The position numbers and the translations under genes were made by a program. Below the pieces are notes generated by a model. It was not told where the DNA came from, searched no databases, and was given only the letters and a program-made list of their open reading frames with translations. From positions 1-64,000 of IMG/VR virus record IMGVR_UViG_3300036780_000209: DNA of 64,000 nucleotides. The stretch is one strand, 5' to 3'. Positions 2,707-64,000 of the stretch are shown in pieces (the first letter of the stretch is position 1; the number at the start of each line of letters is the position of its first letter). The DNA is from a virus.

Positions 2707-3225
2707 ATGCGTAAGGGACAGAAGCTGGCTGACGATAATCGGTACTGGTCTAAGGTCAGTATCCGTAAGGCCGACGAATGCTGGCCCTGGACCGGGTCCT
2801 GCCTTCCCTTTCCCGGACATCCAGAACTGCAAGGGTACGGACAATTCTGGGACGGAACCTACCACCCGAATGGTCGCCCCCGTATGGTCGGTGCTCACCG
2901 ATGGGGATACACCTGGCGCATCGGACCAATCCCTGATGACTTCCAAGTCTGCCATTCGTGCGATTTCAGGCCCTGCCAAAATGATGCACATTGGTTCCTC
3001 GGTACTCAATCCGACAACATGAGAGATGCCGTTCGCAAGAACCGCATGCGGCAACCCGACAACTCGGGAGAGAATCACGGACTTCATCGGCTTACCCAGG
3101 CGCAAATCGAAGAAATCCGGTGTCGTTACAGCCAGGGAGGAATCCGGCAAAAGGATCTGGCTGCCGAGTTCGGTGTCGGTCAGCAACAGGTCAGTCGCAT
3201 CATCAGAAAGCAAAGCTGGCGTTAG
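2707..3225 (+). CDS. Free-standing HNH homing endonuclease with C-terminal HTH
   Basis: CWPWTG...AHR...VCHSCD...CQNDAHWFLGTQSDNMRD motif and QKDLAAEFGVGQQQVSRI HTH. TATAAT at 2695-2700 lies 6 nt before ATG 2707 (leaderless). Confidence 0.9.
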   Translation: MRKGQKLADDNRYWSKVSIRKADECWPWTGSCLPFPGHPELQGYGQFWDGTYHPNGRPRMVGAHRWGYTWRIGPIPDDFQVCHSCDFRPCQNDAHWFLGTQSDNMRDAVRKNRMRQPDNSGENHGLHRLTQAQIEEIRCRYSQGGIRQKDLAAEFGVGQQQVSRIIRKQSWR

Positions 3226-6200
3226 GCCCATACGACATCATCCTCCAGATCGTCTGATCCACGCTTGTTCAGCTCGTCGGCCAGATCCTCGTAGTGAGTG
3301 CCCGAGATGTCGAGCAGGTCCAGGTTCCTGGCGCGGACGCCGCGTCCCTCGGCGATGAGCTGCCCGGCCTCGGCATCCCCGAACACCTCGGCGGTCTTGC
3401 TCAGGTAGCCCCGGGCCGCCGCCGCGATGTCATTGTCCTGCGGCGTTGCGTTTCCTGCGTTCAGCGACTGAGCCGCCGCGCTGGCCTGGAACCGGGCGAT
3501 GATGTCGTCTTCCTTCTGCCCGGTGCCTTCCGTCCCGCCGTACTCGTCGCCTGACGGCATCCCGGCCGGGACGGACACCTCGTCGGAGTCGGCCCCGCCG
3601 CCGGACCACTGCTGGTTGCCGATCGTCTGGATGCTCGTGTCATCCGGGCTCATGTCCTCATCGTGCATGCTCATGCCCGGCCCGCCGCCGGTATCGGAGG
3701 CGTCGAGGGCATAGCCGCCGTCGGCGGTCACCCCCTCCGGGTCGAGCGCGGCCTCGGGCTCGTCGTGCAGCTCGGCCAGGGCACGGCGCAACGCCGCCCG
3801 GACCCGGGACTCCTCCATCCGGATGCCCTGGGGATCGGCCGGCGAGATCGAGGTTGAAGGGCCGGCGGTGTTCGACTGGTCGCTGTACGGGAAGCTCTCC
3901 TGGTACTCCGGTCCCCAGTCATCGATGTCCGGGCCGGCCAGGGCGGCCTCATGCCGGATTCCCGGATGCGGCTCAGCGCCGTGGAAGGGACCCCTCGTCC
4001 CGTCGCTGAATGGCGTGTCCTCGTGCTCGGAGTAATGCACGTAGGCGCTGACCTTCTTGCCCGCCCGCGCCGCACCCTGAGCACGGTGATGTCCGTCAGC
4101 TACCTGGTAGATCCCGTGCCTGTGCACCAGGACCACCGGGGGCACCTTGTCCCCGTGCATATAGCCCTCGTAGGCCTGCCGGACCCGGGGGTCGCCTCTT
4201 TCATGCCGGGCATAGTCGATATGCCTCGGATGCACCTTCTCATGATGGAAGCTCAGGTCCCAGGCACTGGACCCCTCGGCACCCGGGTCCTCAGGCCGGT
4301 CATTGGCCAGGTCATTGGCTGCCGAGCCGATGCCCTCACCGTCGGCCCCCTCGGCCTCCTCGCCATGCTCCTCCGGATCCCCGTAGACATGCGGGTGCCG
4401 TGCCCCGACCTCATCCCAGTCCAGCGATGCCATGTTGCTCAGCGGCATCTGCGCGGCGCTGGTCTCGTCGATCTCGCCCCAGTTCTCCGGGTCAGGCGCA
4501 TTCAGGAACCCGTGATCAGCCGGGTTGGTATCGGGTGCCCGGGGCTCGGTGGCCCCGAACGGCTTGGCCGGGGGATGGGAGGGCTCGGCCTGGCTTCCCC
4601 AGGGCGCGTTCGCCTGGTCCGCCTCGATGATCATGCTCAGGTGCCCGGAGTCGTACCGCTGGTGAGCTTCATCATCCACCTGCGGGTCCCATGGCTGCGT
4701 CTCGCGCATGATCTCGTGCATGTCCTGGTACCGGTGGAACCTGCGCGGCGGATCATAGTCCGTGATAGGCCGGTTCTGGTTGAAGCCGCCTTCGGTGTCC
4801 GGGTGCCCGTACGACTCGGCTTCCCCTCCGCCGTAGGGGGTGTACTCGCGGCCGAAAGCGTGGTGATCGTGGTCGGGCCGCACTTCCGCGTCCGGGTGAT
4901 GCAGGAACTTGTGCACGCGGGCCGGGCCGCCCATCGGTTCGGTCCACTCCGGGGGGTGGCCGTGCTTGCGCTCCAGGTGGCCGGGCAGGTCCCCGGGCTC
5001 TGCCCAGTCGGAGGCATGCCCCAGGTGGTAGCGGACCGGGCCGGCCTCGTATTCAGGCCCGTCGATCTCCTCCTGGCCGGCCTGATCGTCGTCGTCATCG
5101 TCGGCGGCGGTGATCAGGCGGCTCTCCTTCTTCGGCTTCTTATCTGCCTTTTCCTTCGGCTTGCCGTCCTTATCCCCGGAATAATTCGGCTCGCCCGAGG
5201 AAAAGTCGGGCTTGCCGTCCTTGCCGGGCTTCCCGAATGCGCGGCCTGGCTTAACCGGCTGCTGCCCGGCGGGGGGGCTGGTACCCTGCGTCCACGGGGG
5301 GAGTCCCGTCATCGCCGCTGGCTGGCTCGGGGTGGCGGACGGATCTCCGAAGTCGAGGCTGTTGGCCTCGTCCTCGGTGTCGGCCTGAGGTCCCGGCTCC
5401 CCCCGCTCCAGGTCGTTGTCCGGCTCCTCGTCCCCGGGCAGTCGCGAGAACGCTCCCTCCACCTCGCCGTGGAAGCGGTCCCTGTCCTCCGGGGTTCCGT
5501 CCGGTCCCCGCTCGCGGCCGGTGCCGTCGTTCCCGAATTGCTGAGAGTGCATCTCGGCCCACGGCCCCTTCTCGTCCGGGACCTCGGCGGTGTAGCTGTC
5601 CAGGGGCTGGCCCTGGACCAGGGCGCGCAGTCCCCGGTGGTGACCGTCCCCGATGTCCTTGGGCCTGCCCTGCACCTGGGTCAGGATTGCGGGCTTGGGG
5701 TCCTTGCCCCTGGCGGCCCTCTTCTCGTTCTTCTTCCCGACCTTGGCCACCCGCTCGGGCTGGTCGTAGGCAGCCCACTTGCCGCGCCCGGCCCAGTTGA
5801 TGTCCGACAGCGCCGTCTGCTCCGGCCCGTGCCAGCGCACCGAGTGCACCCAGTCGATCGCCTTGGCCGGGTAGTCGCCCGCGAGCTGGGAGTACACCTG
5901 GTCGGCCCGGCGGCGCTGGACGAGCGCCTCCGCCTGCAGGGCGGAGTAGCGGTACCTGGACTCCAGGCTGCCCTCCTCCGGCAGCGGGTGCGGACGGCCC
6001 TCCTCGGACCTCATGACCGATCCGTACGGGTCATCCGGCAGCCGTCCGCCGGGGTCCTGCAGCGAGGGGTGCAGCTTGCGCAGGGGGAAGCTGGTCCCGA
6101 ATGACCGCTCGAATTCCTGGCGGCGCTCCTGGCGGCCATACTCGACCTCGCTCATCCGGTTATGCAGGTGATCGGCCGTGCCCGCGTCGTGCAGCCCCCA

Positions 6201-8420
6201 GTGGACGCTTTCGCCCGTGCGCCCCTGAGCCCTGGCCTGCCCGATGTCCTGCTCGCCCCAGTGGTGATGCCGCTGGAGGTGAGCCCAGTACTGATTTTCC
6301 GAGGTGGCCTGATGCTCCATGCGCTCTCCTTCAGAGGAGGTTGTCGAGCGCAGCGTTTCCGGGTGAGGCCGGTAAGGCCCCATGTGCTCCAGGTGCACGT
6401 GCCTCATCGGTGCCGGCCAGCCGCCCATGCCCTGATGGGACTGGGTGTGCTCGTCATCGGGGTCCAGTCCCTGGTCCATGGCATCCTGCAGCTCGTCAGG
6501 ATCCCAGTGGTGCACGTCCACCAGGTGCTCCCGGTAGTCGTAATCGACGGACCCCATGGCCTGGAGGAATTCCACGTCCTGGCTGTCCGGAAGCGGCTCG
6601 GGCTCGGGCACGTACTGCGGCTGCCCGTACTCGGTGCTCGGCACGAAGTCGCCCCAGTTGGCCCCCTGGCCCGTGCTCCACTCGTGCAGCTTGCCGCGCT
6701 CGTGGCCGGTCCAGGGGACGTTGGCCTCATGCAGCGTGGCCACGAAGCCGCCGATCTCCAGGCCCGGGCCGCCGCCGCCGGACACGTTCTCGGGGAACAT
6801 GCCGATCTGGGCGCCGTTGGTGTTCTTCTTGACCTCTTCCTCGGTCCGGTGCTCAGCCGGGCCGGCCTGGGGCACCGAGCTGCCCGGGGAGGGGTGAATG
6901 TCGTAGGCCTTCGCGTCATCCCACTTGCCGTCGCCCTGGCCCTCAGTGGACTCGTCATCGTAGGAGTTGGGCTCGGCCGCCCGGGGGTTACCCGGATCCG
7001 ATCCGTGACCGGGGGCATCGCCGTGGTCATCCACCTGCTGCATAGAGGTGCCGGGGCGTCCGCTCATCTGCGTGGCAGCCCACAGCCAGGCGGCCTCGTG
7101 CGGCGCGAAGTCCTGGTCCTCGTCCTCAGGCGGCTCCTCCTCGCCTTCCGGAGGCCCTTCCCCATCCTCCTCGTCGTCACCTGGCGGAGGCGGAGGGGGT
7201 CCCTCAGCGGGCGGCTCAGGGCCGCCTGCGGGCGGCAGCGGCTCCTCCGGCTCGTCGATGTTCTCGCCGAGCCACTGCTGCTGGGCCGGGGCCTGGCCGT
7301 AGATGCCGCCGGACTCGCCCGGCTCGCGGGGATCCTGGTCAGTGCCGTAGGCAGCGGCGGTGTGCTGCTGCGGGCGAGGGAAGCGGAACTCGTTCAGCGG
7401 CCCGGGATGCTCGAAGCTGCGGTCTCCCTTGCGCCAGGAGATTCCGATCAGGGAGACGGGAGCGTTATCCCTCAGCGGGATCTCCTGGTCCTCGTGCTTG
7501 TCGTAGCCGAGGACGCGGCGGTCTTCGAGGGCGTCCACGTCAGTCTCGATGTGGTGGCGCTCGGGCCGGGCAGCGTGCAGGAAGACGTGCGTCTTGCCCC
7601 CGTCATATTCCGCGACGTGAGCGTAATGCTCGCCTCTCTCCGGATCGCTGCTCCAGCTATTCCCGACAACGCCCCGGGCCAGGTGGTCGGAGAGCGCCCT
7701 GGCGCGCTCGGCTACGGGCCGCGCCTGATCGTGCACGAACTCGTGAACGTGAGCGGGCAGCTCGACGCTCATCCCCCGGTGGACGACATGAGGAAGCTGC
7801 GGGTAGTGCTCGTCCCAGTCCGTGTGGGCCGACTCGTGATTCTCGGCCTCCTCGCTGCTATAGTGATGCTCCTCGCAGACATCGCACCAGCCGTTGTTAT
7901 GGCTTTCCGGATAATCCCGGTCATGAGGATCTTCCGGATCGTAATGCGCGATCTTCGACCCGATGACCGTGAACTGGCCGGCCGGGTCCGGGCGGTCGTG
8001 CAGGACCGAGCCGAACTCAGGGTAATCATCGGCAGCCGTGTGGATGATCTCGGCCAGCGACTGGCCATTGCGGCCGATCACCCCGTCAGGCATCTGGCCA
8101 TAGGCTGCGGCCCGGGCCTCGTCCTCGGTAAGGTAACGGGCCGTCACCCCGGCGGGCAGGTTCGCGGGGGCCTGGCTGCCGCCGCCGAGATCTTCGGGCA
8201 CCGGGCGGAGCTGGCTGGCCGTGTAGGTACCGCCGCCCATGCCGTTGTCGAGGACGACCTGGTATTCGGTAATTCCAGGAGAGAATGACTCACTGACAAA
8301 AATAATGCGCCCGATGAATCCGTCAATAGTCCTTACGCGATCCCCGACCTTGAACTGAGTATCCAGGGCTCCCTCCTGAGAAGAGAGGCGAGAAGAATGC
8401 CGCTTAATCCGACGCTCCAT
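3222..8420 (-). CDS. Giant (about 1730 aa) virion-associated polyvalent protein: SH3/KOW-like N-terminus, ADP-ribosyltransferase-like domain, two ParB-like domains, His-rich modules, acidic linkers
   Basis: FKVGDRVRTIDG; HRG...SWSSD...EDQE (R-S-E ART pattern, about 7400-7800); GDGHHR (about 5640) and ADGHHR (about 4090); C-terminal ARNLDLLDISGTHY. ATG 8420 follows AGGGGG. Confidence 0.75.
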   Translation of the reverse strand: MERRIKRHSSRLSSQEGALDTQFKVGDRVRTIDGFIGRIIFVSESFSPGITEYQVVLDNGMGGGTYTASQLRPVPEDLGGGSQAPANLPAGVTARYLTEDEARAAAYGQMPDGVIGRNGQSLAEIIHTAADDYPEFGSVLHDRPDPAGQFTVIGSKIAHYDPEDPHDRDYPESHNNGWCDVCEEHHYSSEEAENHESAHTDWDEHYPQLPHVVHRGMSVELPAHVHEFVHDQARPVAERARALSDHLARGVVGNSWSSDPERGEHYAHVAEYDGGKTHVFLHAARPERHHIETDVDALEDRRVLGYDKHEDQEIPLRDNAPVSLIGISWRKGDRSFEHPGPLNEFRFPRPQQHTAAAYGTDQDPREPGESGGIYGQAPAQQQWLGENIDEPEEPLPPAGGPEPPAEGPPPPPPGDDEEDGEGPPEGEEEPPEDEDQDFAPHEAAWLWAATQMSGRPGTSMQQVDDHGDAPGHGSDPGNPRAAEPNSYDDESTEGQGDGKWDDAKAYDIHPSPGSSVPQAGPAEHRTEEEVKKNTNGAQIGMFPENVSGGGGPGLEIGGFVATLHEANVPWTGHERGKLHEWSTGQGANWGDFVPSTEYGQPQYVPEPEPLPDSQDVEFLQAMGSVDYDYREHLVDVHHWDPDELQDAMDQGLDPDDEHTQSHQGMGGWPAPMRHVHLEHMGPYRPHPETLRSTTSSEGERMEHQATSENQYWAHLQRHHHWGEQDIGQARAQGRTGESVHWGLHDAGTADHLHNRMSEVEYGRQERRQEFERSFGTSFPLRKLHPSLQDPGGRLPDDPYGSVMRSEEGRPHPLPEEGSLESRYRYSALQAEALVQRRRADQVYSQLAGDYPAKAIDWVHSVRWHGPEQTALSDINWAGRGKWAAYDQPERVAKVGKKNEKRAARGKDPKPAILTQVQGRPKDIGDGHHRGLRALVQGQPLDSYTAEVPDEKGPWAEMHSQQFGNDGTGRERGPDGTPEDRDRFHGEVEGAFSRLPGDEEPDNDLERGEPGPQADTEDEANSLDFGDPSATPSQPAAMTGLPPWTQGTSPPAGQQPVKPGRAFGKPGKDGKPDFSSGEPNYSGDKDGKPKEKADKKPKKESRLITAADDDDDDQAGQEEIDGPEYEAGPVRYHLGHASDWAEPGDLPGHLERKHGHPPEWTEPMGGPARVHKFLHHPDAEVRPDHDHHAFGREYTPYGGGEAESYGHPDTEGGFNQNRPITDYDPPRRFHRYQDMHEIMRETQPWDPQVDDEAHQRYDSGHLSMIIEADQANAPWGSQAEPSHPPAKPFGATEPRAPDTNPADHGFLNAPDPENWGEIDETSAAQMPLSNMASLDWDEVGARHPHVYGDPEEHGEEAEGADGEGIGSAANDLANDRPEDPGAEGSSAWDLSFHHEKVHPRHIDYARHERGDPRVRQAYEGYMHGDKVPPVVLVHRHGIYQVADGHHRAQGAARAGKKVSAYVHYSEHEDTPFSDGTRGPFHGAEPHPGIRHEAALAGPDIDDWGPEYQESFPYSDQSNTAGPSTSISPADPQGIRMEESRVRAALRRALAELHDEPEAALDPEGVTADGGYALDASDTGGGPGMSMHDEDMSPDDTSIQTIGNQQWSGGGADSDEVSVPAGMPSGDEYGGTEGTGQKEDDIIARFQASAAAQSLNAGNATPQDNDIAAAARGYLSKTAEVFGDAEAGQLIAEGRGVRARNLDLLDISGTHYEDLADELNKRGSDDLEDDVVWA

Positions 8421-8509
8421 CTTTATGCCCCCTGATAAGATACAGAAGAGCGGTCCCGGCAGTGCGGGAACACCACCGGGACCAGCAGACCTGACATGGA
8501 GGTCCACCT

Positions 8510-9004
8510 GTGCCCGAGTCTACTGAACGATGGCTGCCGATCCCTGGTTATGAAGGCTTGTATGAGGCTTCTTCCGACGGTCGGATCCGGAGCAACCGGC
8601 GACAAGGTTCCCGGGGCGGCCTCAAGAAGCTCAGCCTTAATCGGCATGGTTACCTGGAAGTAAACCTCTCGCGCGATAACAGCAGCCGGACATGGCCGGT
8701 TCATCAACTGATCACGCTTGCTTTTCATGGCCTCCGGCCACCTGGCCTGGAAGCTAGGCATCTCGATACCAACAGCCTGAATAATCGCGCCCAGAATCTC
8801 TGCTGGGGAACTTCCGCTGAGAACAAGCAGGACACCCTGGCACACGGCAAACACAACATGGCCAGTAAAGATAAATGCCCTCAAGATCATGAGTACACCC
8901 CGGAGAACACCTACCGTCCTCCTGGCCGACCGAACAACCGCCAGTGTCAGATCTGTCGGCTCGCTCAGGGCGCAGCGAGGCGAGCTGAGTCCAGGTTGCA
9001 CTAG
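8510..9004 (+). CDS. NUMOD4-HNH homing endonuclease
   Basis: ERWLPIPGYEGLYEASSDGRIRS (NUMOD4); VHQLI...ARHLD...NNRAQNLCWGTSAEN (HNH); CPQDHEY...CQIC zinc motif. Confidence 0.92.
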   Translation: MPESTERWLPIPGYEGLYEASSDGRIRSNRRQGSRGGLKKLSLNRHGYLEVNLSRDNSSRTWPVHQLITLAFHGLRPPGLEARHLDTNSLNNRAQNLCWGTSAENKQDTLAHGKHNMASKDKCPQDHEYTPENTYRPPGRPNNRQCQICRLAQGAARRAESRLH

Positions 9005-9097
9005 GCGCACCCGCACCCGCTGGCCCTGCCGGAACGCCGTGTCCCCGGCTGCTCCTGTGACCTGGCGGGTGGCGTGACGCTGGATCTTGCGCTCCAC
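9005..9097 (-). pseudogene. Orphaned original 5' end of the giant gene 3222-8420, cut off by the HNH insertion
   Basis: GGAGG RBS + GTG, then MERKIQRHATRQVTGAAGDTAFRQGQRVR, which aligns with MERRIKRHSSRLSSQEGALDTQFKVGDRVR at 8420. Confidence 0.8.
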
Positions 9098-9193
9098 GAG
9101 ACCTCCCTCGTACTTCCGGGGAAGCAGCGAGCCCCGGACAAGAGGGGGTCTGCCGGGGCTCGCTCAAGGAGGTGGGGTGCTCCGCTGAGAAGA

Positions 9194-9484
9194 CTAGCCG
9201 GTGCGCGGGTTCTCTGCCAGCCTGCGCTGGATTTCAGTGACTTCGGCCGGGCTCTTGCCGCCATTCTGGTGACGGCCCCCCATGACCTGCCGCCATGCCT
9301 GGGCGGCGCTCTGGACGCCCCAGCCGAACAGGATCGCCTCATCGTCGTTGCGCAGCTCGGCGAGCTGGCCGTTGGACATCACCACCCCGATGCTGCCCGG
9401 TGCGGTGGCCAGCTCCTGCCAGCTCCGGACGTACCCGTCATCGACGAACCCGTCGAGCAGGAGCCTTGCCTGGTCGTTCATCAT
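9194..9484 (-). CDS. Hypothetical protein
   Basis: ATGA overlap with the ardC stop; GC3-biased codons. Confidence 0.55.
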   Translation of the reverse strand: MMNDQARLLLDGFVDDGYVRSWQELATAPGSIGVVMSNGQLAELRNDDEAILFGWGVQSAAQAWRQVMGGRHQNGGKSPAEVTEIQRRLAENPRTG

Positions 9485-10419
9485 TTCTCCTCGTAGGTGG
9501 TGACGCGGCCCAGGACGCAGTCCACTGCCTCCCCGGCCCGGGCCGAGGCGCGGAAGATGAGCTTGTGGTCGTTCCTCAGCTTCGCCAGCCAGTTGCCCAG
9601 GTAGGCAGCGGAGTTGTCGAAGATCCCGTCCCCGTCGATGCCGGTCATGGCGCACAGGTAGGCGGAGGTCATCTCGGCGATCAGCTCCTCGTCGGCGTAC
9701 CGCTCGGAGCCGAAATGATCGAACCCGGCGATCCCGGCCCGGCCGAGCCGGCTCTGGTGCCCGGTGGAGTGGCCGCACTCGTGGAACTCGGTGGCATACC
9801 GGTGCGAGGGGGAGTCGAAGCCCTCCGGATGCGGGATGGTGATCATGTCTTCGCCGGGGCTGTAGCAGGCCCGGTCGCCCGCGTAGCGGAACCCCGGGGC
9901 ACCGTCCCGGTGCAGGTAGCCCATCAGGACTTCCTCCGGCTCGGGCAGCAATCCGTTGCCGCCCCGGTCCTCTGCTGAGGGGTAGCACCAGTCCGGCAGC
10001 CCGTCCGCCTGCTCGGCATTGAAGACGGCATGCCAGCGCATGACCGGGATCCTGCGGGTCACCTTGTCGCCGGTCTTCTCGTCGATCTCGGTCCTGGGGT
10101 AGGTCTTCGACAAGATGATGCCGGTGCTGCCGAGCCCGTTCTTGTGGCTCTGGCCCTCGCGGACCTTGCCGCCGAGGTCGATGATGGCCTTGTAGGTGCC
10201 CCACCAGGGGGACCGGTAGCCGCGCTCCAGGGCGGTGAGCCCGAGCAGCCAGACATTGACGCCCCGGTAGGGCCTCTTCGAGGAGAGCGAGCACGGGAAC
10301 CCGGCGGCCCCGCTTCCCTGCCACGGCTTGTGCCAGGGGACGACCCCGCGCTCCAGGGCCGCTATCATCTTCGCGGTGACCTGATCCCGGATCGCCTGCT
10401 GGCCTTCCTGCGTCGCCAT
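9481..10419 (-). CDS. ardC: ArdC-family antirestriction ssDNA-binding protein with zincin-like metallopeptidase domain
   Basis: PWHKPW, YRGVN, WGTYK, VFNAEQ, HECGHSTGH and YADEELIAE motifs; AGGAGG RBS. Confidence 0.92.
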   Translation of the reverse strand: MATQEGQQAIRDQVTAKMIAALERGVVPWHKPWQGSGAAGFPCSLSSKRPYRGVNVWLLGLTALERGYRSPWWGTYKAIIDLGGKVREGQSHKNGLGSTGIILSKTYPRTEIDEKTGDKVTRRIPVMRWHAVFNAEQADGLPDWCYPSAEDRGGNGLLPEPEEVLMGYLHRDGAPGFRYAGDRACYSPGEDMITIPHPEGFDSPSHRYATEFHECGHSTGHQSRLGRAGIAGFDHFGSERYADEELIAEMTSAYLCAMTGIDGDGIFDNSAAYLGNWLAKLRNDHKLIFRASARAGEAVDCVLGRVTTYEEK

Positions 10420-10509
10420 CTGTCCTCCTGTGGTCGTCCTTGTATAAGTAAACCTTATCAAGCATCCTTGTATTAGTCAACGGGATCGGGCTCGCAGTAC
10501 GCTCTCCGC

Positions 10510-11331
10510 ATGACTGGAGAGCCAACGAGGATCATCGCCTGCGGGGACTGGCACGGGCATACCGCCTGGGCGGAGAACGTGATCAGGCGCGGGCCGGAAT
10601 TCTTCCTGCCGGGCGAGCGGAGAATCTTCCTGCACCTCGGAGACTTCGGGATCTGGCCCGGGGACGAGCCATACCTGGCCGCGCTGTCGGCCGCCCTGGC
10701 GGAGACGGATGCCGAGCTGTGGTTCATCGACGGGAACCACGAGCAGTTCCCGAAGCTGACCCTCGCCATGGAGGGCTGGGACGGCAGCGGGCCGCTGGAA
10801 TACCGCGAGCGGATCTTCTACCTGCCCCGTGGATTCCGCTGGGCCTGGCACGGCCGGTCCTGGCTGGCACTCGGGGGAGCGGCCTCGGTGGACCGCCGGG
10901 GGCTCGTGCGGCGCTGGACTAACCAGTTCGAGCCGTCAATGGTGCCTAACCGCACCGCCGGAGTGGACTGGTGGCCCGAGGAGAGGATCACCCGCGAGCA
11001 GGCAAACGCGGTCATCGCGGCCGGGCCGGCCGACGTGATGGTGACTCATGACTGCCCGTCTGAGGTAGTGCACGCCTTCCCGGACCGGCCGCGCTGGTGG
11101 AGCGACCAGGACCTCAAGGAGTCCGACGAGCACCGCGAGCTGCTGCAGGAGGTCGTCGATGCCGTGCGGCCCTCGCACCTGATGCACGGGCACCTTCACA
11201 TGCTTTACGCCCGGCCGGTGAAGTTCAGCTACGGGACCTGTGAAGTCACCGGGCTGGACTGCAACGGCAAGGACGGCAACTGGGTCCCCCTCGACATCAC
11301 GAAGATGGAATGGCTGCCTGAGCTTGTGTAA
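10510..11331 (+). CDS. Calcineurin-like metallophosphoesterase
   Basis: GDWHG, HLGDFG, DGNHE, THD and HGHLH motifs. Confidence 0.9.
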   Translation: MTGEPTRIIACGDWHGHTAWAENVIRRGPEFFLPGERRIFLHLGDFGIWPGDEPYLAALSAALAETDAELWFIDGNHEQFPKLTLAMEGWDGSGPLEYRERIFYLPRGFRWAWHGRSWLALGGAASVDRRGLVRRWTNQFEPSMVPNRTAGVDWWPEERITREQANAVIAAGPADVMVTHDCPSEVVHAFPDRPRWWSDQDLKESDEHRELLQEVVDAVRPSHLMHGHLHMLYARPVKFSYGTCEVTGLDCNGKDGNWVPLDITKMEWLPELV

Positions 11332-59124: not shown

Positions 59125-61593
59125 TCAGTTCCTTCCGAGCGGAATGGACTCCCAGCGTCCGCCCCGACAGTACCAAATTTCCCCGACAGGCCACTTCATC
59201 TTCTTCACCTGCGGCAGGAAGCGCACGGGCTGCTTGCTGTAGGCGAGCGTGATGTGCGGGAGGAAGCCATGCTTGGCCGGGATGGCCGAGATGCCGTGCC
59301 CCTTCAGGAAATCCAGGAGACTGCCGTGGATCTCGTGGCCGCCGGGGATGTCCACCAGGGCGTGCAGGGCATGGTTGCCCTTGTTCGCGAAAGTGCCGGA
59401 CCCCTGGGTCGTGGCCTCGAACGGCCGCTGGGTCTTGGCCCACTGGCGCACCAGGTCCTCCAGCTTGCCGAGCTGCCTCTCAGGATGATCATCTTCCTCG
59501 CCCAGGTAGAGCAAGGTGATGTGCATCTTGGAGCGCGCCTCAGTCTCGTGCCGCAACGGCTTCATGATGTCCCGCAGGTGGTCGAGCACCTCAGCGGGAG
59601 GCACGATCGCCACCATCATCGACTTGCTGATGCCGTCGGCCCCGTCACGGGAGGGGACCGTGCGGACGGCCGCCGTGCTCGGCGCGAACGGCTGGGTGGT
59701 CTCGACATGCCTGATCACCGTCGCGCCCGGAGCCATGTACTGCCGCAGGCCGGCCGGGTGCGTCATGTTCCCGAGGTGCCCGTGGGGCTCGACCTCGTGG
59801 ATGTGGTGCCTGCCGATCGTCTCGGCCCACTCGCGTGCCGTGCCCAGGTCTCCCGACATGTAAATCCGGCCGCCAGGATGCGGCGCGGTCAGCTCCGTTC
59901 CCGGTTCCAGCATCTCCGCTGAGGCATGGAAGAGCCGCTCTGGCCGCTGAGCAGCCGCCTCCCTGGGGATCCCCAGGTGCTCGTAGTCGGCTGCGCCGCG
60001 CCCGCTGTGCCTGATGGTGATGGTGCGGTCCATCGGGTGCCACTCCCACCCGGGGTCCGGCTTGACCGCGCCGGGGGCCGACGGGTCGCGTTTCATGTCC
60101 TCGCGAGGGTAGCGGAGGTGACCGGGGGCCTCGGTGTCGTCGCCTCCGGGGTGGTGCCAGACGTAAGCACCGTGCAGCTTCACCTGCGCCCCGGGGCGGA
60201 ACCGCACCTCGGCCTCGCTGTCCAGGGACCTGTGCTGGCCGTACCAGATCGGGTGGTCACGGGGGAAGTGCTGGTCCGGGTGATCCACCTGGCCCTGCCA
60301 GAGCACGACCTTCTTTCCCGGCCAGGCATACCCCTTGATGGCCATGTCGGGGTCAGCCGTCCAGTGCATGCCGGTGGTAGCGTGCTCCAGGTCCTCTCCT
60401 GCAGGACGGTGCTCCCCCCGCCAGACGTGCGTGCCGGGCTCGGGGTTCTTCGCCACCTCCAGGAAATGGCGCCGGATTCCCCGCCACCCTTCGGGCTCGT
60501 CATACCGCTGGAAGACGGCCCTCTGGGCAGGCGGGAGGTCCTCGTCCCGGAAGGAGGCTGTCTTGCCCTTGGCGTACCACTCGTCGCAGGTGTAGTCGAA
60601 CATGATGCCGCCCTTGACCAGGGTGCAGCTTCCGGGCTCCGAATCACCCGGCGCGGGGCGGAACATGACGCAGCTCCCGCAGCGCTTCTCCCCCTCGGCC
60701 GGGCGGTAATTCACCTGGCCCTTGTTCTTCCTGCGAGCTGCCCATTTGCCCCTGAACGGATCATCATGCTCGCCCCGGCGCATATATGCCTTGTATTCCT
60801 CGGGGAATTGCTGCCTGCGCGTATTACGCCAGTGATCACTGTCCCTGAGATGGCTCTCGCTGTCCTCCGGCCAGTAGTCCCCGTGCTCTGGAGTGCGGAC
60901 GTAAGGGATGCCCTTCCCGAGCTTCCACGCAGAAACCAGGCGGTGATGACCCTGGCCGACTTCCCATTCGCCCTCTCCGTGGTGGGCAATCTCAACCGGG
61001 TGCGTCACTCCGTGCTGGCGGACATGATCAGTCAGCTCAGCCATGTACTTCGGTTCCCGGTGATGCAGTGCCTCGGAAACATAACTGATGTCCCGGCCCG
61101 GGTAATCACTGAAAGTGAGCTTGCCGAATTCATGAGGATGAAGAGTGCCGCTCTCGCCTTCGTCCTCGTCAGGATCCTGTATCGAGCCCGTGCTCGAAAA
61201 GAGCAGCGCACGCAGCTTGCCCAGCAGGTTATGGGGGTGCTGGTCGAGGTACTTCTCGATGACGTTGCCCGGGTCGGACCACCCTTCGCCTTCCCCGCTG
61301 AACGCCTCCGAGCGCATGTCGTGGATGTACTGCCACAGGGACCTGGCCTGGCGGGTGCGCTGGGGCTCGTCGAGCTTGAGGATCGCCCGGAGCTGGGCAG
61401 CGACGGCACGGGCCTCGGTGAGGAGCGCGGGGTGGAAGTCAGCCGCGCTGTGCTCGGGCAGATCAGGAGGTTCCACTGCCCAAGTGTTATTCGTCAGATC
61501 ATAAGCGGCATAGGGCTTGATCTGCCGGATATCATAGGCATCGTGGTTAACGTACCAGGTCATATCAAAAGAGTCACGCGCTCGCTGTGGCAT
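59125..61593 (-). CDS. Polyvalent protein, C-terminal part: C-lobe of pol-beta nucleotidyltransferase, ParB-like, HiPIP-like, two ART-like domains, 2H phosphoesterase
   Basis: TWYVN...DIRQIKPYAAYDL; GQGHHRL; YRPA..KRCGSCVMF...C...C..W; VWRG...MHWT...SEAEV; LFHAS...IYMS...HEVEP; HITL...HITL. AAGGAG RBS + ATG 61593. Confidence 0.8.
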   Translation of the reverse strand: MPQRARDSFDMTWYVNHDAYDIRQIKPYAAYDLTNNTWAVEPPDLPEHSAADFHPALLTEARAVAAQLRAILKLDEPQRTRQARSLWQYIHDMRSEAFSGEGEGWSDPGNVIEKYLDQHPHNLLGKLRALLFSSTGSIQDPDEDEGESGTLHPHEFGKLTFSDYPGRDISYVSEALHHREPKYMAELTDHVRQHGVTHPVEIAHHGEGEWEVGQGHHRLVSAWKLGKGIPYVRTPEHGDYWPEDSESHLRDSDHWRNTRRQQFPEEYKAYMRRGEHDDPFRGKWAARRKNKGQVNYRPAEGEKRCGSCVMFRPAPGDSEPGSCTLVKGGIMFDYTCDEWYAKGKTASFRDEDLPPAQRAVFQRYDEPEGWRGIRRHFLEVAKNPEPGTHVWRGEHRPAGEDLEHATTGMHWTADPDMAIKGYAWPGKKVVLWQGQVDHPDQHFPRDHPIWYGQHRSLDSEAEVRFRPGAQVKLHGAYVWHHPGGDDTEAPGHLRYPREDMKRDPSAPGAVKPDPGWEWHPMDRTITIRHSGRGAADYEHLGIPREAAAQRPERLFHASAEMLEPGTELTAPHPGGRIYMSGDLGTAREWAETIGRHHIHEVEPHGHLGNMTHPAGLRQYMAPGATVIRHVETTQPFAPSTAAVRTVPSRDGADGISKSMMVAIVPPAEVLDHLRDIMKPLRHETEARSKMHITLLYLGEEDDHPERQLGKLEDLVRQWAKTQRPFEATTQGSGTFANKGNHALHALVDIPGGHEIHGSLLDFLKGHGISAIPAKHGFLPHITLAYSKQPVRFLPQVKKMKWPVGEIWYCRGGRWESIPLGRN

Positions 61594-62176
61594 CACGCTG
61601 CTCCTTCTGCTTGGCACGGATACGTCTCTTAGATTCCCGCTCTATATGACGCCTGTGCTCCGGATCCTGGGCTCTTTGCTTTGCATGATCAGCAAGAATA
61701 GCTTCCTTATTCCGATCATAAAACCCCGTCTTAGACTCCCTCGCGCATTTCCGGCAATTCCGTCTTCCATCCTTGAGGAAGAAGTACTCACAGCCATGCT
61801 TAGGGCATCTTTCCTTGCGCGAATTCCTATGCGTGCCATGCCTGACTGAATCCAGCATGTTCTCGCTCTTGGTGCCCCACTCAAGATTACTAGGAGAGTT
61901 ATCTTGATTTTCGCCATTAAGATGACGAGCTTCGAACTCGTCAGGGCACGGACCGTTAACTGCCTCGCAGACGAGTTGGTGGATATATCCACGGGTAATT
62001 TCGCCCTCACGTGACATAGCTATATAGAGGTAACCCTTCCTGTCAGCTTGCAGCTTCAAGAAGTTGCCGCCACGGAGCCCGCGCCGTGTCTGCCGGGGGA
62101 GGCTCCGAGCGCGCCCGCAGCTAGACACCTCGTACAGCTCCTCCCAGTCCCTGACCGGAAACCAGATCTCGGTCAT
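61574..62176 (-). CDS. NUMOD4-HNH homing endonuclease inserted in the polyvalent gene
   Basis: EIWFPVRDWEELYEVSSCGRARS; IHQLV...ARHLNG...DNSPSNLEWGTKSEN; AGGAG RBS inside the upstream ORF. Confidence 0.92.
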   Translation of the reverse strand: MTEIWFPVRDWEELYEVSSCGRARSLPRQTRRGLRGGNFLKLQADRKGYLYIAMSREGEITRGYIHQLVCEAVNGPCPDEFEARHLNGENQDNSPSNLEWGTKSENMLDSVRHGTHRNSRKERCPKHGCEYFFLKDGRRNCRKCARESKTGFYDRNKEAILADHAKQRAQDPEHRRHIERESKRRIRAKQKEQRDATASA

Positions 62177-64000
62177 CGCGCTCTCCTGGCAGATGATAAT
62201 CCGGGTCATTGAGTGCAGAACGCATCAGCTTGTTAAAGAAACCATCAATCTCAGACTCGGAGATAGAAGAGTATCCTGGATTATCCCGATAGAAGGTGGA
62301 ATAATTTATTCCTACCAAGATATCCAGGTCGTTATTACCTTCCAGTTCAGGTCCGGTCCAGCGGCTCGCCTCGCTGCCACTCAAATATACCTTGCTCCAA
62401 GCCTGCCAGTGGACAAAGCCCTGATCCCGGCAGAAGGCATCCCACTTCTCCATGACGGATTCACGAACTTCCGGCCGCAGCTCGCCGGCCTCGGTGAAGA
62501 GCCGGTGGTCCAGGCCATAAGTTGGGCCGAAGATGCCCCGGGCAGGCATCCAGCGAGTGCCCTGGGGCAGCGGAGCGGACAAGCGGCTGACCGGCCCGGC
62601 AGTCGCTGCCTCGTGCGAAATCCTGTCGTCGTTTCCCTCGTGAAGACGGGCCTCGATCTGGTGCGGGCGGAAGGCAATCGCCGAAGTATTAGCGGCAGCT
62701 CCACGGCTGGACTTCTCGAACTCATTGCCGTAGGTAATGCCGTCATGACCCTGATCTTCGAGGTGCTTCCTGAAGCGCTGGGCGATCTCGTATTTGTCTG
62801 GGTGCGCATTCAGCCACCCCATCGCGTAGGTGTGCTGAGCGGTGTGGTGATGGCCCGCGCGCATCGGGTCCGGCTCGCGTCGGTCCCGCATGCGGTCGCC
62901 ATGGTCAACGAAGTGATAGGCCGGGATCTCTTCTCTCAGTTCGTCGTGCCAGCCTTCCTTCTGCGCGTCCCGGTACGTCGCCATGTCGAGGTGCTTCTCC
63001 GGATGATTACCCGCCTTCCACTCGTGCTCGTAAACCTCCTGATCCATGTCGTGCTCGGAGTGGTAGTGCTTAGGGTTCCGAATGTTCAGGCGGGCATGCA
63101 CGATATGACCAGCCGGCTGATCGTCAGGGTCTTCCTGCTCGTAATCCGGGTTCCGGTGCTCGCCCTTACTGAATTCTCTGGCAACGTGATGATCAGCGGT
63201 GAAGTGCGATCCCATAAGGGTGTTCCAGTGCGAGGTATCGCTTTCATCGTGATCGAATTCAAGCGGACTGAAGTTATCGAACTTGGCGAAGCGATGCGGG
63301 CTCCCGTGAAACCACTCGCTGCCTTTGGTATGTGGGTTAGCCAGCGGGCGAGGCTGATGCGTCATATCGAAGAGCTTTAGCTGGCTATTCGGAAGCGCCA
63401 CGCCCACCTTGATGTTCCCCTGGTCGCCCTTGGTGATCTCTGGCGAAATTGATTCCACTCGATCCATAGGAATACGCTCACGGGTCCTGATGTAATCGTC
63501 AGCCGAGTGAGTAAACCACTTATCCGCCAGCTCATGGCGGATCTTGAGCACGTGCCCGGTGCCATTCCTGGGCAAGTAGGAGACGGCACTACGCGGATCG
63601 ACGGCCGCATTAGTACCCTCCCAGTCAGCAATCGTCCCGCGCCGGTCTGACTGGAGGTACCCGCGATCACGGGCCTGCGCCAGTTCATCGGCTGAAACGC
63701 CCCGGTAGACATGATGCACGGGCTCATCGCGGACCTTTTTCGGATATGCCAGGGCATTGGTGACCCCGGGGATGCCATGGTCCCAGACCTCGAAGTGAAC
63801 CGGTCCCTCCCCCCTACCCGCCGGGTGGTGAAGCCTGCGCGACTCGCCAGTCTCGACGCTGTATCCACTGCGCGGGTGGATAACCCGGTTAGCCTCTAGC
63901 CGCCTGGGATGGAACCAGTTCTCCAGGTGCTGGTCCAGCTCGTCATTGGTCATGGCCCCCTTGCGCAAACCAGGGAGCGAGACAGCCGCCGTGTGCTCCC
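62121..64000 (-). CDS. 5'-partial polyvalent protein, N-terminal part: two ART-like domains and the N-lobe of a pol-beta nucleotidyltransferase
   Basis: Frame is open to the window edge; VYRGVS...; WFHGSPHRFAKFD...SHFTAD...GHDGITY (ART-PolyVal-like); YLSGSEAS...DLDILV (hG[GS]...DxD). Confidence 0.8.
   Translation of the reverse strand, partial: EHTAAVSLPGLRKGAMTNDELDQHLENWFHPRRLEANRVIHPRSGYSVETGESRRLHHPAGRGEGPVHFEVWDHGIPGVTNALAYPKKVRDEPVHHVYRGVSADELAQARDRGYLQSDRRGTIADWEGTNAAVDPRSAVSYLPRNGTGHVLKIRHELADKWFTHSADDYIRTRERIPMDRVESISPEITKGDQGNIKVGVALPNSQLKLFDMTHQPRPLANPHTKGSEWFHGSPHRFAKFDNFSPLEFDHDESDTSHWNTLMGSHFTADHHVAREFSKGEHRNPDYEQEDPDDQPAGHIVHARLNIRNPKHYHSEHDMDQEVYEHEWKAGNHPEKHLDMATYRDAQKEGWHDELREEIPAYHFVDHGDRMRDRREPDPMRAGHHHTAQHTYAMGWLNAHPDKYEIAQRFRKHLEDQGHDGITYGNEFEKSSRGAAANTSAIAFRPHQIEARLHEGNDDRISHEAATAGPVSRLSAPLPQGTRWMPARGIFGPTYGLDHRLFTEAGELRPEVRESVMEKWDAFCRDQGFVHWQAWSKVYLSGSEASRWTGPELEGNNDLDILVGINYSTFYRDNPGYSSISESEIDGFFNKLMRSALNDPDYHLPGERDDRDLVSGQGLGGAVRGV

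Follow-up and report, generated by a model that had tools for sequence, protein, structure and literature searches.

A homing endonuclease gene between two diverged copies of the 5′ end of a giant phage gene

Introduction

How can a homing endonuclease gene sit within the coding start of a large phage gene and leave the encoded protein whole? The question is raised by the virus record IMGVR_UViG_3300036780_000209 (166,498 bases, rated complete, GC content 66.7%), the first 64 kb of which form the window analysed here. In this window, a gene for a NUMOD4-HNH homing endonuclease lies antisense between two diverged copies of the 5′ end of a giant gene, of which the outer copy is stranded and the inner copy serves as the working start of a 1732-amino-acid protein. 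The locus offers a clear case from nature of a gene end replaced in association with a homing endonuclease. Arrangements of this kind have been published for fungal mitochondria, and the present one is a variant in a phage, at a 5′ end and with the nuclease gene antisense. The published precedents that we found all concern 3′ ends in fungal mitochondria (PMC3630166), and our literature search returned no phage case with a duplicated end of the target gene.

Structure of the locus

A preliminary description of this DNA had named a native start (GTG 9097), an antisense NUMOD4-HNH gene (8510–9004) and a second start (ATG 8420) in frame with the giant gene. All of these are present at those positions, and the second start opens the open reading frame of 1732 amino acids that constitutes the giant gene (8420–3222, minus strand). 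The features of the locus are listed below in the direction of transcription of the giant gene, together with the evidence for each (GC3, GC content at third codon positions; SD, Shine-Dalgarno sequence).

9126–9165, minus strand: native terminator-like hairpin, after the upstream 443-amino-acid gene and before the old leader (read from the sequence)
9098–9121, minus strand: native leader of the giant gene, ccccggaag...gggagg, then 4 nt and the GTG (matches the family motif)
9011–9097, minus strand: stranded native start, GTG and 28 further codons (GC3 0.86, relatives-only profile, BLASTP)
9005–9016, minus strand: outer junction, GTGCGG GTGCGC in tandem, bounded by the final native codons and the HNH stop (sequence)
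8510–9004, plus strand: intact free-standing NUMOD4-HNH homing endonuclease gene, 164 amino acids, antisense to the giant gene (GC3 0.62)
8421–8509, no strand assigned: foreign divergent spacer of 89 nt, with a hairpin and the SDs of both genes (leader unlike the family motif)
8265–8420, minus strand: foreign replacement 5′ end, ATG and codons 2–52 of the giant gene (GC3 0.55)
8232–8264, minus strand: putative inner crossover zone, codons 53–63, where third positions switch to G/C (GC3 and conservation)
3222–8231, minus strand: resident remainder of the 1732-amino-acid giant gene (GC3 0.86)

Both starts belong to one protein family. An N-terminal domain of the pattern MERRIxKHSTRLS...F.VGQRVRTIDG opens nearly all of the 59 homologs found, and a profile of 12 relatives, with the window's own sequence left out, was searched against the six-frame translation of the whole 166-kb genome. 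Only two matches were obtained genome-wide, namely the working start (E-value 1.6e-48) and the stranded start (E-value 2e-4, profile positions 1–32, from GTG 9097), the next best match having an E-value of 4. The two starts agree at 14 of 30 residues (BLASTP, E-value 7e-7), which bears out their proposed relatedness, and each has an average identity of 42% to the 59 homologs. At the DNA level, they have 55% of bases in common with a longest shared run of 7 nt, and 10 of the 14 common residues are encoded by different codons. A segment-wise comparison of identity to the same homologs (residues 1–30, 31–52, 53–110 and 111–420) yielded no usable phylogenetic contrast.

Composition and leader identify the stranded copy as the resident start and mark the patch between 8265 and approximately 9007 as foreign: the remnant has both a high GC3 and the family leader, and the working copy has neither. 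The second copy is indeed the AT-richer one, as had been noted (GC3 0.55 for codons 1–52 versus 0.86 for the remnant and the rest of the gene). Elsewhere in the giant gene, no 55-codon window falls below a GC3 of 0.69. In every one of the relatives, the GC3 of codons 1–55 lies between 0.80 and 0.98. The low-GC3 patch spans approximately 745 bases with sharp edges, and no second copy of it was found in the genome.

The leaders separate the two starts in the same way. Relatives have a common motif directly before the start, CCGGAAGGAGGGAGGAGG-N4-GTG/ATG, which is present at the remnant as ccccggaagtacgagggaggtctcGTG, where an SD (GGGAGG, 9107–9102) precedes GTG 9097, so that the identification of the 9097 copy as the original start stands. 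The hairpin ahead of this leader (9165–9126) has the arms gagcgagccccgg / ccggggctcgct, and comparable hairpins precede the giant-gene leader in relatives. The leader of the working copy runs in the order hairpin, CTCTTCTGTATCTTATC, AGGGGG (8433–8428), CATAAAG and ATG 8420, and is unrelated to the family motif. Its hairpin is a 15-bp, GC-rich structure (8484–8451) followed by a U-rich stretch, which could be a terminator of the donor or a regulator of either gene. As a side observation, the motif CCGGAAGGAGGGAGGAGG is conserved 25–30 nt before the start codon in loci L004–L014 and L043–L052 of related phages, and its region forms an unusually long, purine-rich ribosome-binding region.

The two edges of the patch are of different kinds. 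The inner switch follows codon 52, within the stretch coding EYQVVLDNGMGGG. DNA conservation in the 5′ end of the family peaks in this block, and a homologous crossover would therefore be expected there. The preliminary description had treated the second copy as a duplicate N-terminus of the target gene; a diverged copy is present, but the foreign tract is not limited to the 29–30 duplicated codons and reaches codon 52, so its left edge near 8265 is a crossover point rather than the limit of a duplicate. At the outer edge, the transition is abrupt: the remnant peptide, VERKIQRHATRQVTGAAGDTAFRQGQRVR, tracks the family pattern up to 'GQRVR', after which the match ceases and homology ends at R29 (9011). 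It is followed by GTGCGC, a near-repeat of the preceding GTGCGG, and then by the HNH stop codon (9004–9002 as read on the minus strand). Foreign DNA thus ends 0–6 nt past the HNH stop, and the tandem GTGCGG GTGCGC may represent microhomology or filler.

A further property of the patch is that a 224-codon frame starting at the stranded GTG 9097 (8423–9097, minus strand) is open through the whole HNH gene in the exact-codon antisense frame and stops at TAA 8425–8423, 2 nt before the working ATG 8420. By resampling, the chance of such an open frame is approximately 0.08–0.19 for the HNH part times 0.49 for the spacer, i.e., approximately 0.04–0.09, which is too weak a basis for claiming a function, although translational coupling through this frame is possible.

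The endonuclease gene and its homologs

The HNH gene has every appearance of an intact reading frame. It possesses its own SD (GGAGG, 8498–8502) 7 nt before its GTG, and its stop codon lies at 9002–9004. The product matches NUMOD4 (E-value 1.7e-14) and HNH_3 (E-value 9e-10) in Pfam, and its closest solved relative is I-HmuI (PDB 1U3E, E-value 3e-11), with which the catalytic H-N-N motif is aligned and kept (H, NN, N). Homologs span 88–99% of its length, and by this comparison the protein is complete to its last residues. The nearest homologs are only 47–53% identical. The two homologs whose gene context was examined are free-standing and intergenic, flanked by unrelated phage genes. At the 17 IMG/VR loci that contain an HNH homolog, no giant-gene relative lies nearby.

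Splicing elements, whose absence had been proposed, can be set aside. No Rfam match to an intron was found in 7800–9600 and the patch contains only 89 non-coding bases; an intein is ruled out by the antisense orientation of the HNH gene. The preliminary description had also compared the locus with gene restoration by integrating elements that carry an attP site. The analogy holds for the outcome, but an integrase-type element was rejected, because the HNH gene is the only open reading frame of the patch, no recombinase is encoded, and there is no repeat core (the longest shared run being the 7 nt given above).

Two additional NUMOD4-HNH genes occur in this genome, one in the window (61574–62209, minus strand) and the other at approximately 68813–69440 of the genome (plus strand), both of which are 40–43% identical to the focal gene. 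A tblastx comparison of the left and right flanks of these two genes revealed no clear duplicated gene end, in a signal made noisy by the high GC content. The genome has 26 patches of at least 300 bases with a GC content below 0.58, three of which hold HNH genes.

The giant gene family and its related loci

The comparison with HNH-free orthologous loci that the preliminary description had called for was made with 33 loci of the giant-gene family (IMG/VR supplied 22, metagenomes 10 and a genome 1, with some redundancy among them), 27 of which include at least 1.7 kb of upstream sequence. A single start is present in all 33, none has both N-termini, and no HNH gene was seen in the upstream DNA available for any of them. 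The remnant-HNH-new-start arrangement thus occurs once in this gene family. Locus L051 at first seemed to show a drop in GC3 as well, but this was traced to a frameshift in its short contig and does not represent a second insertion. Among four complete related genomes, the HNH family is absent from three and is found at other positions in the fourth. The site is thus empty in related loci, which is the sporadic occupancy typical of a free-standing homing endonuclease.

Searches for a donor or sibling of the locus were negative. When IMG/VR was queried singly with the HNH protein, with the upstream gene and with residues 1–420 of the giant protein, no giant-gene relative adjoining an HNH gene was detected, and the phage collection contained no DNA-level relative of 7600–9900. 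A tblastx comparison of the window flanks with relatives was swamped by high-GC noise, and no synteny signal was drawn from it.

The giant protein has no Pfam match. Of its two DGHHR ParB-like motifs, one gives a weak match to ParB in PHROG, and its homologs carry Arr-ms, ART-PolyVal, NUDIX, GNAT or RelE-like domains; we class the gene among the large 'polyvalent proteins' of phages and plasmids. Since its relatives are located on contigs of 150–166 kb and on a 151-kb Streptomyces plasmid record, the host is probably a Streptomyces-like actinobacterium. The plasmid record (our locus L058) is Streptomyces sp. cg35 plasmid pRLB1-9.1, which is annotated as a plasmid, carries a member of the giant-gene family, and falls in the size class of these phage genomes. 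The phage group with the giant gene may include phage-plasmids.

The 443-amino-acid gene upstream of the giant gene (9194–10525, minus strand) matches nothing in Pfam or PHROG and is missing from all four complete related genomes examined, so the donor probably had no homology on that side. Within it, a 67-nt stretch (9648–9714) resembles a primase gene of a Brevundimonas phage.

Origin of the arrangement

From the structure observed, we infer intronless homing from an unsampled lower-GC relative, with a homologous crossover at the inner edge and a non-homologous join at the outer one, as the probable origin of the locus, albeit with appreciable room for doubt. The donor lineage is placed outside the sampled relatives because no low-GC member of the giant-gene family was found among them. 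During a mixed infection, an I-HmuI-like HNH gene would have been copied into the phage from this relative, along with approximately 245 bases of neighbouring donor DNA, i.e., the leader and the first 52 codons of a giant-gene ortholog. The nuclease would first have introduced a nick or a break into the resident allele, somewhere from codon 29 to codon 52, and the gene-internal end would then have invaded the donor ortholog, homologous recombination placing the crossover in codons 53–63. Next, the donor 5′ end, leader and HNH gene would have been copied, and finally the outer end would have been joined without homology, with at most a few bases of microhomology, 0–6 nt past the HNH stop, since the upstream gene is not common to relatives and no homologous partner would have been available. 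The resident leader, GTG and 29 codons would thereby have been left stranded upstream, and translation of the protein would now begin in the donor's 5′ end, which is in frame and brings its own ribosome-binding site, so that the insertion would cost the phage nothing.

Several observations support this history. The patch is foreign by GC3 and has sharp edges, the family leader occurs only at the remnant, and the HNH gene is intact and I-HmuI-like, with free-standing homologs and without a match to an intron model. The proposal that the HNH gene arrived together with a diverged and differently coded 5′ end, which is now the working start, agrees with all of this. Across the stretch coding VGQRVRT, many bases of the working copy depart from the family consensus, and this copy is plausibly resistant to the nuclease for that reason. 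Three points weigh on the other side. No donor or sibling with an HNH gene beside a giant-gene ortholog was found in the searches described above, the nearest HNH protein being 53% identical; a random illegitimate join would be expected to leave a less tidy edge than foreign DNA ending within 6 nt of the HNH stop; and the cleavage activity of the HNH protein, the site that it cuts and the immunity of the replacement allele are predictions.

The tidy outer end fits a precisely bounded cassette better, and this is the main point in favour of an unlikely but serious alternative, in which the HNH gene, spacer and recoded start form an evolved, self-contained homing cassette that inserts precisely at codon 29–31 of HNH-free alleles. 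Such a cassette would always carry a cleavage-resistant replacement 5′ end, and the donor would already have had the remnant-HNH-new-start order. The break does lie inside the conserved VGQRVRT-coding stretch, where the working copy differs at many bases, the different coding of the common residues and the short shared runs would make the duplication stable against deletion, and fungal mORFs recur as units in several genes (PMC3630166). However, the single instance among the 33 family loci does not show the replacement start to be a built-in part of a repeatedly mobile cassette, as the preliminary description's view would have it, and the nearest HNH relatives examined are at unrelated intergenic sites, none beside such a gene. 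The low-GC tract also extends 23 codons past the duplicate, and the spacer has the hairpin-SD-start layout of a normal locus; such a leader together with 23 extra codons is what co-conversion of the donor's neighbouring ortholog would give. In addition, the remnant is free of any co-conversion, its GC3 of 0.86 persisting right up to the junction. Homing from a lower-GC relative and a cassette may be stages of one history: at a later time, the remnant and native leader could act as the left homology arm, and the arrangement could home as a unit into HNH-free relatives.

Ordinary mosaic recombination between co-infecting phages, with the HNH gene as a passenger without a role, is somewhat less credible still. 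Phage genomes are mosaics, most of the 26 low-GC patches of this genome lack an HNH gene, and the nuclease activity is a prediction. On the other hand, all three NUMOD4-HNH genes of the genome are located in low-GC patches, and the patch at the giant gene corresponds almost exactly to an HNH gene plus the adjoining gene start. Moreover, endonuclease-initiated repair is expected to leave such a footprint, in which one edge is a homologous crossover and the other a break within the gene (PMC2988022).

We regard as distinctly doubtful a more elaborate version in which an autonomous 'start-replacing' cassette with a recoded, nuclease-resistant 5′ end invades codon 29–31 and also exploits the stranded start. 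Ribosomes from GTG 9097 would read the 224-codon frame to its stop at 8425–8423 and re-initiate at ATG 8420, which is equally doubtful; expression of the giant gene would then remain tied to the native leader, and the HNH gene would be expressed less strongly owing to the antisense translation. Finally, although the record is a metagenome-assembled virus, an assembly artefact joining two strain variants is very improbable, given that two starts with 55% of bases in common and shared runs of at most 7 nt could not have misled an assembler, that the join is in frame with its inner switch in a conserved block, as in real recombinants, and that the contig is rated complete.

Implications

The locus indicates that neither an intron nor an intein is needed for a homing endonuclease to invade the 5′ coding end of a large and probably important phage gene while the protein is kept, the donor's own gene start and leader coming along with the nuclease. 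A 5′ case has the extra requirement that translation signals be supplied. Stranded remnants of this kind mark the likely cleavage region of an uncharacterised nuclease, and they explain short orphan open reading frames and spurious upstream starts in annotation.

Comparison with known systems

The closest parallel is provided by the mORF hybrids of fungal mitochondria, such as those in atp6 of Allomyces macrogynus and in atp6, atp9, cox2 and nad3 of Glomus sp., which consist of a foreign C-terminus, an endonuclease open reading frame and a native C-terminal remnant (PMC3630166). As in the phage locus, an endonuclease gene is located between two diverged copies of one gene end, the copy on the gene core is foreign and the native copy stranded, the gene is functional without splicing, and the origin is put down to horizontal transfer with the endonuclease. 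The differences are also clear. mORFs are found at 3′ ends, whereas the phage case involves a 5′ end, for which a start codon and ribosome-binding site must be supplied; their endonuclease genes are on the same strand and often in phase, whereas the phage HNH gene is antisense and not in phase; their nucleases are of the LAGLIDADG or GIY-YIG type, whereas the phage enzyme is of the HNH type and its host a double-stranded DNA phage; and they recur in several genomes and genes, whereas the phage unit was found once in the giant-gene family.

Free-standing phage endonucleases cut away from their own genes and co-convert flanking DNA (PMC2988022). In the intronless homing of T-even phages (SegF, SegG, SegB and MobE; PMC2988022, PMC2790892, PMC2330249), a free-standing nuclease gene is likewise located beside its presumed target gene, the donor's diverged allele is copied in with the nuclease, and occurrence among related phages is sporadic. 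Unlike in those phages, where both flanks are homologous and no duplicated remnant results, the outer join in the present locus appears non-homologous and a start is stranded. When homology is limited to one exon, homing proceeds by illegitimate break repair at microhomologies, according to the summary in PMC2988022, which cites Parker et al. 1999. In that account, homology on one side only and a junction at microhomology on the other resemble the phage locus and would explain how such an element can land at a new site, whereas the system is an experimental one, as summarised there, and its nuclease is intron-borne.

The nuclease itself resembles I-HmuI, the intron-encoded HNH nicking endonuclease of Bacillus phage SPO1, in that the N-terminal NUMOD-type region and the H-N-N motif align. 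It differs in its C-terminal region and in its setting, I-HmuI being encoded inside a group I intron. T4 MobA with the gene 60 bypass element, as well as genes split by MobE or Seg endonucleases (PMC2988022), also have a nuclease gene within a coding region and accompanying sequence that keeps the host gene usable. In those cases, however, the gene is expressed as two polypeptides or by ribosomal bypassing, whereas here a replacement start restores one complete polypeptide.

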